Of a stretch of DNA of 64,000 nt, positions 6,936 through 38,600 are shown in pieces. The notes beneath the pieces are model-generated. The model did not search any database, was not told the origin of the DNA, and worked only from the letters and a program-made list of their open reading frames with translations. The DNA is from a virus, in IMG/VR virus record IMGVR_UViG_3300030060_007200. One strand, given 5' to 3'. A program made the position numbers and the translations under genes. Within the stretch, counting starts at the first letter, position 1. Every line of letters begins with the position of its first letter.

Positions 6936-7916
6936 TTATTTTTTACCTTTTACTTTATTTCTTATATTATTAAGTATACCGCTTACAGAGTTTATTTTAT
7001 CCTCAAAGTCCTTAATTTTACGTAAACCATTGGCTACCTCACCATTAAGTGTTTCAACTTTTTCTAAGCGATTCATTCCAGACATGTCCAAACCTAAATC
7101 TTCCATCTCGTCTTTAGTTGTTATTCTACTAAATGCAAAGTTTGCTGTTACAACTAATGCTATTGCTAATGGGTCAAATACAAAAACTATTAAAAGTAAA
7201 AACCAATTAACAACCTTATCCATAGTTGCGCCTGTCATGTCTGATAAATATTTTAGAGGACCTAGCTCTCTTTGTTCTTCATTGCCTATTTCCAATTTTA
7301 ATAAATCAGTATCTAATTTCATTATAGAATCTTGTACAGCTTCTAATTTTAGATTTATATTATTTCTATCATCGATTGTTGTATTTAATTCTGACTGCAA
7401 AGCTTTTCTAGCAGATGATGAAGTGGTTGTTATTAACTGGCCAGATTCTCTATCAACATATTGTACCTGTGCTGGATTTGATAGTGAAACCCTTAATTCT
7501 TTTATAGTATTATTTAATTGAGTTTTTTCTATTATTAGGTCGTTTTTATTATCCTCAAATCTATCCTGCTTTACTTGTAATACTGCCAATGACTTGTCTA
7601 AAAACTCAGACTTTGTTGCAGTCTCTTGATATGCTCCTGATAAAAATCCGTATATACCACCTGATGTAATTACCATTAAAACAAATACTGCAATTGATAA
7701 ATATATTTTTAGAGCCTTGCTTATTTCTTTCCAGTATTGGTAAAGCAGGGATGCGGTGACTAACTTTGCAAACTCTAAACTACCAGCCATTATTATTACC
7801 TGGGTACTTGCGCCTGCAAACAGTTTGCTCAAACCAAATACAGAATAAAATGCTGCTGACGCTGAAACTGACAATGCACTAAACGCTATTAAATAAGGAA
7901 GGATTTTTGTTTTCAT
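6936..7916 (-). CDS. Multi-pass membrane protein with a long coiled coil
   Basis: Three N-terminal TM helices, coiled coil, ELGPLKY...VFDPLAIAL TM segment. Confidence 0.7.
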   Translation of the reverse strand: MKTKILPYLIAFSALSVSASAAFYSVFGLSKLFAGASTQVIIMAGSLEFAKLVTASLLYQYWKEISKALKIYLSIAVFVLMVITSGGIYGFLSGAYQETATKSEFLDKSLAVLQVKQDRFEDNKNDLIIEKTQLNNTIKELRVSLSNPAQVQYVDRESGQLITTTSSSARKALQSELNTTIDDRNNINLKLEAVQDSIMKLDTDLLKLEIGNEEQRELGPLKYLSDMTGATMDKVVNWFLLLIVFVFDPLAIALVVTANFAFSRITTKDEMEDLGLDMSGMNRLEKVETLNGEVANGLRKIKDFEDKINSVSGILNNIRNKVKGKK

Positions 7917-8782
7917 GATTTGCTTGGTGGTTGGTTAGAACTATATACCAATGTATATATTACCTTGCCATCTAAATCTTCTTTGATTCTTATTTCAGAA
8001 TCCACAATTCCTAGTTTTTCTATAATTGTTTGAAGCCTAGATATTTTTTCAGAATCATAATTGCTTATACAAATATATTCACCAATAATTGTTACAACCA
8101 TATTGTTGTAGTCATATCTTTTTTCGAATAAATTATATACCTCTTCATCTAAAACAGGTACTAAAGGTAAATCATGTATAAGTCTTTCTGAATAATATTT
8201 TTGATTTTTTATGTCTAAATTTTCAAACCACTTTTTGAATGATGTATAATCACCTTCAAAAATATTTTTGTCATTGTCTTTCATTAACGACCACATCTCT
8301 ACAGTTGTTAATGCCTCGGGTATATATTTTTTATCTTTACCCATTTTCCAAGTACCATCTTTATTCGATTCGAAGTTTGTTCTATATTGCTTAAATAAAT
8401 TTATTAAATTATCTATAGAATTCAACCCCTGTCTATTTGTATCTTTTATTTTAGGTGGCACATAATCTGAGTATGTATTGTCTAACGTTATTTCCTTAAT
8501 AAGTTTTGTTAAACCTTTTTTACCAGAATCTAATAAATTTTTTAGTTCCTGGCATTTTTCGTATTCTTCTGTTTCAATAAAATAATCTATGATGTCATTT
8601 AGAATATCAGTAAGTTCTTTTACATCTAGACTAAATGGGTCGTATAATATATAATGCGTTTCATTACCTGCTACGGCGAAGTTATCGATTTTTGATTTAC
8701 CGGTAACTAACCTATAGGTATTTAGAAATGCTACATCCAAACCTTCAGTGTTTAATTCTTGTGATTCATACGATTCCATCAT
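7913..8782 (-). CDS. Hypothetical protein with a UvrB/UvrC-like coiled-coil motif
   Basis: IDYFIETEEYEKCQELKN. Confidence 0.5.
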   Translation of the reverse strand: MMESYESQELNTEGLDVAFLNTYRLVTGKSKIDNFAVAGNETHYILYDPFSLDVKELTDILNDIIDYFIETEEYEKCQELKNLLDSGKKGLTKLIKEITLDNTYSDYVPPKIKDTNRQGLNSIDNLINLFKQYRTNFESNKDGTWKMGKDKKYIPEALTTVEMWSLMKDNDKNIFEGDYTSFKKWFENLDIKNQKYYSERLIHDLPLVPVLDEEVYNLFEKRYDYNNMVVTIIGEYICISNYDSEKISRLQTIIEKLGIVDSEIRIKEDLDGKVIYTLVYSSNQPPSKS

Positions 8783-8799
8783 ACTCCAATTATTTATTT

Positions 8800-9037
8800 T
8801 GTTACCTCTAACCTCCGAAGCTTATACGGTGTGCTTCTTCTACCGTTGGTTTAGGGTGCCTTATCAGGCAGCCATCGCCATTTCAACTTGTGCGCCAGTT
8901 ATGCGTTGAACTTCCTTATATCCTTTTCACCGTGTCAAATCCAGTCACCCCCATGTTTTAACCTAAATCTTCTTGTGGAGGTGGAGGGTATCGAACCCTC
9001 GTCCAACAATGCAGCTAATATAAGTAATAGCGTTCAA
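8800..9037 (-). ncRNA. ssrA: tmRNA, circularly permuted two-piece form; tag peptide GAQVEMAMAA
   Basis: T-arm/acceptor 3' half (GGAC-GAGGG-TTCGATA-CCCTC-CACCTCC-A, 9004-8976) is transcribed before the 5' half (GGGGGTGACTGGATTTGAC from 8952); G3-U70 pair; tag ORF 8896-8864 after ATAACT, ending AA-TGA-TAA. Confidence 0.9.
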
Positions 9038-9046
9038 ATATAAATA

Positions 9047-9274
9047 TCACTTCTCTACCTGTTTTTTAGGTTTTCTTCTATAAGTTCTGCGATTATTTTT
9101 AGGTGCAGATTTCCTAGAATTTTTTCCAAGTGATTTGATTTCGTTTTTTAGTAATTCATTTACTAGAATTTTATCTTCTAATAATTGTTTAACTGTAACG
9201 AATCTTTTGTTTAGATATAGTACTGTTCCTAATATACCTAAACCAAATGCTAGTATTACTGATAATGTTATCAT
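9047..9274 (-). CDS. Small membrane-anchored basic protein
   Basis: N-terminal TM helix, basic tail. Confidence 0.55.
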   Translation of the reverse strand: MITLSVILAFGLGILGTVLYLNKRFVTVKQLLEDKILVNELLKNEIKSLGKNSRKSAPKNNRRTYRRKPKKQVEK

Positions 9275-9546
9275 TTCTTATACCCTTTCCATGTTCCTGT
9301 TCCCTCTTCAAGCATGCCAAGTCTTTGTCCTACTTTATACATTTTCTGCATATCATACATAGTCTCTATAACTCTATTTGTTTCAGAGAATGTTAATTCA
9401 ATTCTCTTACCATCTATAAAGAATGTACCGATTAAAGGTTGATTAGCATCTCCTTGCGGACGTAATGCTTTAGCTCCTTTCATTAACTCACAGTCAATTG
9501 TTGACCAAACTTTCCCATACTTTTGGGGATTAAATTTCTTTGCCAT
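9271..9546 (-). CDS. Hypothetical protein
   Basis: ORF overlapping the next gene by ATGA. Confidence 0.55.
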   Translation of the reverse strand: MAKKFNPQKYGKVWSTIDCELMKGAKALRPQGDANQPLIGTFFIDGKRIELTFSETNRVIETMYDMQKMYKVGQRLGMLEEGTGTWKGYKK

Positions 9547-9757
9547 GTTTTATTTTTTTTAGCAAATTATGTCTACTCTTTTACATTTAGGATTTTCGAC
9601 TTTCTCCTTAGAATTATCTAATATATTATTTTAATTTATTAGTTAATTATTATATTAGTATACTAATTATTAGTATTATTAGTAATTACTATTATTAGTT
9701 TTTTACTACTAATATATTAAAAATTTCCGACAAATAAAAATATTTTCAGAACTTTTT

Positions 9758-29055: not shown

Positions 29056-29086
29056 TTGCTCTCCTTTATATATAAATATCAAACTA

Positions 29087-35391: not shown

Positions 35392-35628
35392 CTATTTTGT
35401 CATTCTTTGTGTCCAATCTTTTAGCTTATCCTGCAGTTGTTTTTTAATTCCAGGTCCTCTAAAAGTTCCGCCTATCTTCATTGCGTCTTTGATAAAGCTA
35501 TTATATTCTTTGTTCCATTTTACTACCAAAGTTTTTTCAAAATCATTTAATAATTTTGCTCGCTCTTTGTCTTCGCCTTTTGAGATTGTTCCGTCAGGAT
35601 TAGCCTCAATAATTTTTTTTAATTTCAT
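35392..35628 (-). CDS. Small putative internal head protein
   Basis: MKLKKIIE N-terminus. Confidence 0.5.
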   Translation of the reverse strand: MKLKKIIEANPDGTISKGEDKERAKLLNDFEKTLVVKWNKEYNSFIKDAMKIGGTFRGPGIKKQLQDKLKDWTQRMTK

Positions 35629-38600
35629 TGTTTTATCACCCTTGTTGTAAATCTTTTGTTATTATATATAAGTATCAAGTTATATACACCATTACTGTAA
35701 TTTGATAAATCTATTCTTTTAGATTTTTCTCTTGTCATTAACTTACCTTGTAAATTGTATATTTCAACCTCCACATCCAATCTTGTATCTATATTTAATA
35801 CATCGCCTGTTGGATTTGGATAAACCATAATTCCCATAGATGTTATATCTTCAACATTTGTTGGCCAACCTAATTGGCAATAATCATACATTGATATACA
35901 TGATGCATCCCAATCTGTAGTACAGCAATAGTCGTCTACTGATATCACCCAAGCATAACATCCATCATTTAACCAATAAGGTATACCAGGCCCTCCATAA
36001 CATCCTGCATCGTATAAACATGCTGTAGAATCAGTTACATTTGCCAGTGGATTGTAATTATATGCCGCTACATCTGTACAACCTGAAACAATTTCGATAC
36101 ATGAATTATCATCAAAGCATGCTGCCGGGTCATAATTCAATGCTGTAGGGTCAGTACAACCTGAAATATAACAACATGTATTATCAGATGTGTTTGCCAA
36201 TGGATTGTAGTTTAATGCTACTGGGTCGTTACATCCGTATACAAAAGGTTCACATGAACCGTTATCAACATTAGCCAATGGATTATAGTTCCACATTGTC
36301 GAATCTGTACAACCATAAATTGGTAAAATACAGCTAAAATCATCTGTGTTTGCAAGTGGGTCGTAATTTAATGCTGATGGGTCTGTACAACCGTAAACAA
36401 TAGATTGACAAGTGCCATTATCTGTATTAGCTAATGGGTCATAATTAAATGCCGTTGAATCCATACATCCATATATAAACGGTATACAATTTCCTGATGA
36501 TGTATTTGCTGTTGGGTCGTAGTTCCACATTGTATTATCCATACATCCAATTATTACAGGAATACAACTACCATCATTTGTATTTGCTGTTACATCATAA
36601 TTAAACATTGTTGGGTCTGTACAACCGTAAATATAAGGTATGCAAGAACCATCATCTGTGTTAGCTGTTAAACTATAATTATACATTGTTGAATCAGTAC
36701 AGCCGTATACAATACCTACACATGTTCCGTCATCATCTGTAGCAGCAGGATTAAAGTTTATTGAAAGTGGATTTGTACAACCTGCAATTTCCAATTCATC
36801 GCAAACTCCATCACCATCTGTATCTAATATACAAGCTCCATAACAATCATAATATTGAACTGGATATGTACAACCTCCATTATCTACATTTGCAATTGCG
36901 TCGTAATTACAAGCTGTTACATCTGTACAGCCTAAATAAATACAAGAACCATCATCTACATTTGCTAATGGATTGTAATTATATCCTATAGAATCCATAC
37001 AGCCATTCACAATTGGAATACATGAATTATCATCTACTGTTGCTAATGAATCATAATTAAGAGCAAATTCATTTGTACAGCCATATATAATAGGAATACA
37101 ATTGCCATCATCAGTATTTGCCAGTGGGTCGTAATTTGCTGCTGTTGAATCCATACAGCCTAATATTACTGGTACACAAGTATTACCACAAAATGGAATA
37201 CCTACATATTTTGTCCAGAAAGGAGATTCAAAAGATTGTAAAGCTCCTTGACCGTTATTAGCAAAAGGATTTTGTCCTTCATGCATTAAAACAAAGCCAT
37301 CTGCATTTGTTAATTTGAATGAGTTATGCCAAGTTTGAAATTGAACCTCTTGCGGTGGTTGTTGTGGTCCACCTACTTCAAAATAAAATACTTCAACTGG
37401 AATTCCTGGGTCTAAAATAATATTCCATGAACCACCATAATTACCAGGTCCCATTGTATATGTACCAATTATCAATCCGTTTTGATAAACTCCTATATAA
37501 GAATTACCCCAACCATCTCCTGCAGCATCGAATATTTCTAATAAATAATTACAGTCAGGTATTAAATCCATCATTGTTGCTGCTGGGTCATAATTAAATG
37601 CAGCTGGGTCTGTACAGCCGTATGTATGTAATGTTGCACATGAACTGTCATCTACTGTCGCAGCAGGATTAAATTCTACGTAATCATCATCTGTACATCC
37701 TGGTATTGGAGGTATTATAGGACAAGGTGTTGCCATTTGCTGGCCTGAATACAATACGGAACCAAAACCTGGATTGTCCATATACCAAATTGTATCACCA
37801 TCACAGTCGTATATAACAATAGCTCCATCCATCGAACCACCTGAAGTAGAGCCTGCCATACCGTCACCAAAATCATCGTTAACAATAAGTTCGAATCCTG
37901 CAGTTTGGTCTACACAGAAAGTATAAGTGTATGTTTGTCCGATATCGTTAAAATCATATGTTCCTACTGTAGCTTCATCAATAACTCCTAAACTATTCAT
38001 TATCCACGATGTTTCTCCTGGCCAATTATCTAGTGTAATTTCCATTGTTATTTGATATTGAGTTGCAGTATCACAAGATGTACCTGCACAACTTCCATCA
38101 TCATATGTAGCCCATGGGTTATATGATATTTGAGTAGGGTCTGTACAACCTGATATACAAGAAGTAGGTGTGTAAGCTATTGTATCTGATAAACTACCAT
38201 CTAAAAATTCTACCCAACCATAATGTTCTACTGACCAGTTAGGTGGCATCTGACCGTTACCTGCGTAAACTGCAAAGTCTAATGAGTTAGGACCAAGTCC
38301 ATACTGAAAAGGACCTGCGCCATTTTCATTGGAATACCAGAATTTTACAGGTGTACAATTTGTATTGCTATCAAGAGTCCAGTTAAAAAGTACAAGTGTT
38401 TGTCCACCTGGTAAGCAATTTTGTGATGCTGTAGAAGTTAAAAAACCCTGACATGGGTCAAATTGACAAATGCTAGGGTCAGAAATATATGCTGTTGAGT
38501 CATAATTTAATGCTGAAGGGTCTGTACAACCTACTGTTGGTGGAGCACAAGGAGCAGTTGTTAATGTTTCTACCAAACTATCTCCAAAATTACCTGCAGC

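Follow-up and report, generated by a model that had tools for sequence, protein, structure and literature searches.

A putative circularly permuted tmRNA gene of reduced architecture in a probable Bacteroidota phage

Two-piece tmRNAs are established for the Alphaproteobacteria, for some Betaproteobacteria and for cyanobacteria, and they carry fewer pseudoknots than the one-piece form (PMC3968760). The first of these pseudoknots (PK1) is needed for tagging in E. coli unless a hairpin takes its place (PMC3968760). The two-piece form has been described in phages too: a survey of 18,146 phage genomes yielded 53 ARAGORN calls of the two-piece form in isolates, for the most part marine (PMC9004378). 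A tmRNA database of 97,179 sequences includes 79 from phages, and it lists sporadic ‘permuted’ calls in Bacteroidota assemblies, for which the best model was of the alpha type in 18 cases, of the beta type in 23 and of the cyano type in 7 (PMC11915505). Some of these Bacteroidota calls may be members of phage families such as the one described here.

The gene considered in this work lies on the minus strand of a viral DNA of 64,000 nucleotides, which we call the window, meaning by this the whole stretch that was analysed. That it is a two-piece tmRNA of a Bacteroidota phage has good support. As the sequence comparisons suggest, and with a probability that we put at about 0.8, the phage encodes a functional tmRNA here, circularly permuted and of reduced architecture.

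The gene and its parts

In the 64-kb window ARAGORN called a single gene, on the minus strand: a permuted tmRNA (8773-9067) with the tag GAQVEMAMAA and two stop codons. The general permuted model of Rfam, RF04321, gave 67.4 bits where 47 are required (whole-window E = 7.9e-11), and the RNA thereby passes a curated covariance-model threshold for tmRNA; the lineage-specific models stay below theirs. The match to RF04321 runs from 9037 to 8864 and covers the model from end to end. The parts of the gene, together with the motif in front of it, are as follows.

9039-9048, minus strand: conserved motif GATATTTATA, immediately before the tmRNA gene
8976-9037, minus strand: acceptor piece (sequence and Rfam alignment; pairs 85-100%, with compensatory changes)
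9037-9032, minus strand: 3' strand of P2c, in the acceptor piece
9024-9018, minus strand: 3' strand of P2b, in the acceptor piece
9011-9006, minus strand: 3' strand of P2a, in the acceptor piece
9000-8996 with 8988-8984, minus strand: T-arm GAGGG/CCCTC (sequence)
8983-8977, minus strand: acceptor 3' strand CACCTCC (sequence)
8976, minus strand: discriminator A, then CAA; the CCA is not encoded
8953-8975, minus strand: spacer of 23 nt, variable among relatives, expected to be removed in maturation
8897-8952, minus strand: 5' part of the coding piece (sequence, Rfam alignment and pair counts)
8952-8946, minus strand: acceptor 5' strand GGGGGTG, giving a 7-bp acceptor stem with G3-U70
within 8897-8952, minus strand: D-loop analogue ACTGGATTTGAC, in the 5' part of the coding piece
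8933-8928, minus strand: 5' strand of P2a, in the coding piece
8921-8915, minus strand: 5' strand of P2b, in the coding piece
8911-8906, minus strand: 5' strand of P2c, in the coding piece
at the P2c, P2b and P2a coordinates, minus strand: inter-piece helices CATTGT/ACGGTG, CTTATAT/ATATAAG and TTGAAC/GTTCAA (sequence and covariation)
within 8897-8952, minus strand: 9-nt leader CGCATAACT, between P2c and the resume codon
8896-8867 (8861-8896 with the stops), minus strand: tag frame GGC..GCC (GAQVEMAMAA), then TGA and TAA (ARAGORN; frame kept in relatives)
8858-8869, minus strand: helix 5-like hairpin GCCT-GATA-AGGC, stop codon in and beside its loop, 100% of cells paired
8817-8846, minus strand: single H-type pseudoknot (covariation of both stems)
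8846-8842 with 8830-8826, minus strand: pseudoknot stem 1, ACGGT/ACCGT, 97.7% paired
8837-8833 with 8821-8817, minus strand: pseudoknot stem 2, GAAGC/GCTTC; loop variants match their own 3' pentamers

The order of these parts is that of a permuted gene, in which the 3' half of the acceptor and the T-arm are encoded upstream of the acceptor 5' half and the tag, with the spacer between them. The tRNA-like domain has the 7-bp acceptor stem with G3-U70, the discriminator A and a T-arm with a loop of the GGUUCGA type. The tag is a short frame with a resume codon, hydrophobic residues and AA at its end, and a stop codon in or next to helix 5. Each of the elements listed in a first-pass annotation of this DNA was found by reading the sequence of the minus strand at its coordinates, and the central claim made there, that of a two-piece, circularly permuted tmRNA gene, is borne out by the permuted call of ARAGORN, by the RF04321 score and by the covariation among relatives. 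The total length had been put at about 240 nt; this figure can now be refined to a functional span of 221 nt (9037-8817), with the spacer counted in.

The architecture as a whole consists of a tRNA-like domain, a long inter-piece P2 helix in three segments, a ten-codon tag, a stop-codon hairpin and one pseudoknot. PK1, which belongs to the canonical form, is absent: its hairpin is deleted in the alignment to RF04321, and the distance from P2c to the resume codon is only 9 nt, which leaves no space for it. From G1 to the resume codon there are 56 nt in the window, and mostly 55-60 nt across the family, and at the place of PK1 no substitute is seen except the extended P2 helix. The tag is followed by one hairpin and one pseudoknot only; PK1 and two of the pseudoknots usual downstream are missing from the phage RNA, and the description of it as minimised holds good. 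It should be pointed out that the cyano-type model is also without PK1, so that the absence of PK1 is no bar to tmRNA function (the pseudoknot content of the three two-piece lineages was taken from the Rfam models and PMC3968760). The minimum-free-energy fold of the precursor is no better than that of shuffled sequences (z = -0.86), and the support for the RNA is therefore comparative and not thermodynamic.

The motif GATATTTATA in front of the gene has five copies in the window, all on the minus strand (1105-1114, 9039-9048, 29071-29080, 39317-39326 and 41242-41251), against 0.9 expected, and ATATTTAT is kept at the motif position in most of 30 aligned relatives. It probably serves the phage as a promoter or regulatory element. 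Only 2-3 nt lie between the end of the copy at the tmRNA and the first base pair that covaries, a gap that is too short for the normal spacing between a -10 element and the transcription start. The motif abuts the first helix so closely that no position can be given for the 5' end of the acceptor piece. A separate RNA element, a match to the DUF805b RNA motif of Rfam (RF02914, 37.8 bits against a cut-off of 35.6), lies at 9570-9609 on the minus strand, just upstream of a 91-codon ORF (9271-9546) that is without a Pfam family.

Relatives, covariation and the tag

The same RNA was found, in syntenic position, in about 60 marine viral contigs of IMG/VR, which were collected through two scans of that resource and a search by the downstream protein. 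Within this clade a protein of 326 residues (6936-7916 in the window, minus strand) is 58-87% identical, and in about 45 of 55 loci its gene follows the tmRNA on the downstream side at a distance of 1-3 kb. Neither this protein nor a second neighbour of 289 residues belongs to a Pfam or PHROG family, and the ESM Atlas has only viral hypothetical clusters for them.

Covariation was assessed on an alignment of 30 sequences (27 of them distinct), with pairs counted on the structure written from the window sequence. In the 27 distinct relatives, 89% of the cells pair, compared with 38-46% when the partners are slid. There are 21 pairs changed on both sides, and none of 500 shuffles reaches the observed values; the covariation that the first-pass annotation had proposed to look for in related contigs is thus present. 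Pairing amounts to 85-100% in each of seven helices, namely the acceptor stem, the T-arm, P2a, P2b, P2c, the stop hairpin and stem 1 of the pseudoknot. For the acceptor stem and the T-arm the figure is 100% in the 27 distinct relatives, with compensatory changes and an invariant G-U. One pair of the stop hairpin switches from C-G (13) to U-A (12), and three pairs of pseudoknot stem 1 are changed on both sides.

Stem 2 of the pseudoknot was misaligned by MAFFT and was anchored on stem 1 by a script instead. Handled in this way, it shows ten different 3' pentamers, each complementary to its own loop; the match is of 5 bp in 32 of 42 and of 4 bp in another 8, and non-self pairings come to 10%. 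A further helix closing around the pseudoknot, CACCC...GAGGT, was considered and dropped, being 63.5% paired and missing where a terminator follows. Intrinsic terminators stand directly after the pseudoknot in four relatives (L007, L026, L201 and L198), and in the window no terminator was found between the RNA and the next gene.

The tags of the family read G(E/A/T)(Q/H)VE(M/L)AMAA. None of the 36 relatives with ten codons departs from the frame; Ala and Leu are written with different synonymous codons, each of the three stop codons is found, and the leader UAAC(U) ahead of the resume codon is conserved. On these comparisons the tag is under coding selection. Five IMG/VR members (L198, L199, L212, L227 and L258) have a tag of 37 codons, for example GKQVNTTIASIFASLSAIRSLSQETIVAKEQVFAMAA, in place of the ten-codon tag. 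The longer peptides diverge from one another and keep their length, their frame and an end of the form (F/Y/L)AMAA, and ARAGORN gives only a shorter or different reading for these members.

Host, origin and proposed action

The phage very probably infects Bacteroidota, as the first-pass annotation had supposed. A protein of 1099 residues (35625-38924 in the window, minus strand) ends in a T9SS type A sorting domain, which scores 43.2 bits against 27 with the Pfam model and 44.6 against 23 with TIGR04183. Proteins of the same kind (1050-1083 residues) occur in two relatives that are about 80% complete (171 kb and 138 kb), and in none of 14 control genomes. The nearest tRNA-like domain points to the same phylum: in a blastn search of 50,697 phage records (E <= 0.001) only the T-arm and acceptor of Chryseobacterium phage MA9V-3 were matched, which makes it the sole GenBank phage with a similar domain. 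Queries from two other phage families likewise gave hits to tRNA domains only. The polymerase, ligase and GroEL proteins had no close cultured relative from which a host could be assigned.

Among cellular genomes of the phylum the one-piece form is the rule, as had also been stated. A standard tmRNA over the cut-off was found in 57 of 61 sampled Bacteroidota genomes, and a permuted one in none of 151. Two sub-threshold matches to RF04321 in Bacteroidota genomes turned out to be standard tmRNAs. A search for an SmpB gene in the 28 ORFs of the window and in five related contigs, the longest of 171 kb, found none; the window and these contigs are incomplete genomes. The SmpB of the host would therefore have to be used.

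With regard to the origin of the permuted form, a descent from an ancestor that was already permuted, either cellular (alpha, beta or cyano) or from the aquatic phage pool, and that was later trimmed and retuned in its tag and resume codon to the Bacteroidota, has in our view somewhat less than an even chance. Phages in IMG/VR have many families of permuted tmRNAs with short spacers (117 hits with a looser pattern, with many tags), several of them equally short and without PK1 (tags ANDNFALAA, GEYALAAAA and the cyano-type ANKIV...), and a transfer of two-piece tmRNA between phages of hosts in different classes has been argued for (PMC9004378). For the coding piece, the nearest nhmmer matches outside the family are phage families, the beta type among them, and the best lineage model for the RNA is again beta_tmRNA (RF01850). 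This match, however, reaches 47 against 84 bits, and it is a local one to model positions 76-171 that takes in the tRNA domain only. None of the three lineage-specific models (RF01849, RF01850 and RF01851) came to its gathering score on the window, which speaks against such a descent; two other phage loci passed as positive controls (L214 on the beta model with 114.5 bits, L197 on the cyano model with 113.3 bits). Three other overlapping matches of the same clan, to unnamed models, stay below 47 bits. An already permuted ancestor also has to be reconciled with the missing PK1 stem, which the beta and the general permuted models have, with an acceptor piece that lacks the 5' hairpin of the cyano model, and with a tag and resume codon that are Bacteroidia-like.

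This last likeness belongs to the other possible origin, which we consider doubtful: that a one-piece Bacteroidia tmRNA was captured by the phage and underwent a permutation of its own, a further independent origin of the two-piece form. It would agree with hosts in the Bacteroidota, where genomes have only the standard tmRNA, and with the failure of beta_tmRNA at 47 against 84 bits. The motif GACUGG.UUUGACA and the Gly resume codon resemble the tmRNAs of the class Bacteroidia. Among the Bacteroidota tmRNAs examined, a Gly resume codon was present in all eight of the Bacteroidia type and in two others with a G start (L144 and L153), and in none from the other classes of the phylum; as GGC, often in the form GGC-GAA after UAACU, it is common to the phage family and the Bacteroidia-type tmRNAs. 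Yet L214, a true beta-type phage tmRNA, also has a Gly resume codon, and the A-U at the first pair of P2a is also that of the beta and Chlorobia types. Among cellular sequences the acceptor piece does have its top nhmmer match in a Bacteroidia tmRNA (L178), but the 33.1 bits of this match are only 2 bits better than the roughly 31 bits of other phage families, and it is limited to the tRNA-like domain, outside of which nhmmer found no similarity to any cellular tmRNA, those of the Bacteroidota included.

More widely, non-tRNA profiles searched with nhmmer against Bacteroidota, beta and other phage tmRNAs gave nothing significant outside the family, except for a sister group (L201), and with this null result outside the tRNA-like domain the comparison does not tell the two origins apart. 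The first-pass annotation had spoken of an independent, minimised permutation in a phage lineage; the second adjective stands, and the first is neither upheld nor refuted by the failed lineage models and the nhmmer search. The fuller proposal, that a clade of large marine Bacteroidota phages permuted and stripped a captured one-piece Bacteroidia tmRNA and that this natural minimal design still works with host SmpB, is a tentative one with the odds against it.

A pattern scan over GTDB, with a single genome for each species, turned up no member of the family; its hits were tmRNAs of the beta lineage and standard tmRNAs that happen to be followed by GGGG.TGAC. The same scan gave one unrelated minimal form with a Gly tag, in a MAG labelled Clostridium. 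An 87-kb contig of a Clostridium sp.-labelled MAG (CAYXOL010000017.1; L115:3521-3814) holds a short permuted tmRNA with the tag GEYSQTYRMAA, with GGC-GAA at the resume site and without PK1, and is probably a phage contig binned into the MAG.

A pure decoy, in which the tRNA-like domain titrates host SmpB or AlaRS and blocks trans-translation by the host while the tag goes unused, as was proposed for the TLD-only RNA of mycobacteriophage DS6A (PMC4131195), could accommodate both the failure to find SmpB in the 28 window ORFs and five related contigs and the missing PK1 that E. coli needs for tagging (PMC3968760), but it is very improbable, since the tag frame, the resume context, the stop hairpin and the downstream pseudoknot, all needless for a decoy, are conserved through compensatory or synonymous changes, and the variants with 37 codons retain the frame and the AMAA end.

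For a functional tmRNA, the spacer is the part that would be removed. It is variable in sequence and 15-23 nt long in the family. One relative (L032; IMGVR_UViG_3300029319_000114, 2700-2830) has a complete gene for tRNA-Ala(UGC) inside its spacer, placed 4 nt past the discriminator and 12 nt ahead of G1. This arrangement would fit an excision of the spacer by tRNA-processing enzymes, and in this relative tRNA processing would free three RNAs from one precursor. In L035 (2755-2835), and also in L036, L037 and L040, the spacer is about 70 nt long and includes, together with GGGG, a direct repeat of the bases immediately ahead of G1; it looks like a partial tandem duplication of the junction. Charging requires a free CCA end. 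This need, the unconstrained spacer and the nested tRNA-Ala gene all fit the standard two-piece route (PMC11915505).

We infer, and only infer, how such a tmRNA would be processed and charged, how it would tag and what benefit it would bring. RNase P of the host would cut the precursor 5' of G8952, trimming would take place after A8976, and the CCA would be added by the CCA-adding enzyme of the host. Of the mature products, the acceptor piece would measure about 62 nt plus CCA, or about 65 nt, and the coding piece some 136 nt or more; the acceptor stem and P2a-c would hold the two together. The AlaRS of the host would charge the RNA by way of G3-U70 and A73, and together with host SmpB and EF-Tu it would enter the stalled ribosomes of the infected Bacteroidota cell. 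Translation would resume at GGC and add (A)GAQVEMAMAA, a degradation tag that would end in the same way as cellular tags. The likely benefit would be that ribosomes are kept free during the destruction of host mRNA and the shut-off of host expression.

Comparison with known systems

The novelty of the gene is smaller than it had seemed at first. Two-piece phage tmRNAs have been published (PMC9004378), and there are many families of them in IMG/VR, several of which are also without PK1. It was already established that the gene form exists, that phages have it and that standard tools detect it, and the discovery is an incremental one. For the window family, its minimal design and its link to Bacteroidota phages, no description was found in the searchable literature. 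If active, the RNA would be a natural minimal tmRNA, with about 200 mature nucleotides, no PK1 and one pseudoknot, that works with the SmpB, AlaRS and proteases of Bacteroidota, and it would bear on the question of which parts of a tmRNA are really needed. A whole clade of abundant marine phages also supplies a ribosome-rescue RNA of its own to hosts whose gene is of another form, and the reason for the carriage of tmRNA by phages becomes testable in a second host phylum. The family is of use chiefly in these two respects, as a minimal tmRNA made by nature and as a case in which the reason for phage-borne tmRNA can be examined.

The two-piece tmRNAs of aquatic myophages (OM43 phage Melnitz, pelagimyophages and cyanophages; PMC9004378) are similar in that a large, lytic marine phage carries a permuted ssrA gene which ARAGORN reads as permuted; no phage SmpB was reported for them either, and ribosome rescue during infection is the presumed role. 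They differ in that they were placed in alpha- or cyano-like lineages, the same as those of their hosts or close to them, and Melnitz has in addition a glutamine riboswitch in the 3' domain. The window family, in contrast, passes no lineage model, has a Gly resume codon and is carried by phages with Bacteroidota markers. As for the Rfam models, RF04321 shares the gene order and the base pairs of the tRNA domain with the window RNA, but both it and the beta model RF01850 have the PK1 hairpin that is deleted here. The cyano model RF01851 is alike in having no stem between P2 and the tag, and unlike in the 5' hairpin on its acceptor piece.

Chryseobacterium phage MA9V-3, a lytic phage of a cultured Bacteroidota host, comes closest in its tRNA-like domain. 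Its tmRNA (PV245944.1, 22766-23124; L001:2940-3298) is called permuted by ARAGORN and scores 64.7 bits with RF04321; the T-arm and acceptor are 97% identical to those of the window over 33 nt, the tag starts with Gly, PK1 is absent, and the RNA is equally short. The two differ in the spacer, which is about 71 nt long in MA9V-3, in the tag of 17 residues (GNVIDINKYVAKLEVAA), and in the part after the tag, where MA9V-3 has only a hairpin and a terminator and no pseudoknot. A search for genes common to both gave 2 weak hits from 95 ORFs, and MA9V-3 and the window phage are therefore unrelated. Both the record of MA9V-3 and the paper on it (PMC13120357) list the gene only as SsrA/tmRNA, with the permutation unmentioned. 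A ClpX-like gene lies about 4 kb from this SsrA gene. Cellulophaga phage phi38:1 (NC_021796.1; L282:1172-1533) has a one-piece tmRNA of the standard kind that its annotation omits (RF00023, 87.6 bits) and whose tag of 22 residues is read by ARAGORN as AQIEANMEAVNAILNLEVAVGV, so that both forms of the gene occur in phages of Flavobacteriaceae.

The one-piece tmRNAs of the Bacteroidia (tags GENNYALAA, GNEEFALAA and others) share with the phage form the Gly resume codon GGC, the 5' region GACUGG.UUUGACA, the UGGAC junction, a CCA that is not encoded and a tag ending in A(L/M)AA. They are, however, single molecules of 372-401 nt, in those that were retrieved, with PK1-PK4, whereas the phage form is permuted, about 200 nt long when mature, and has one pseudoknot.
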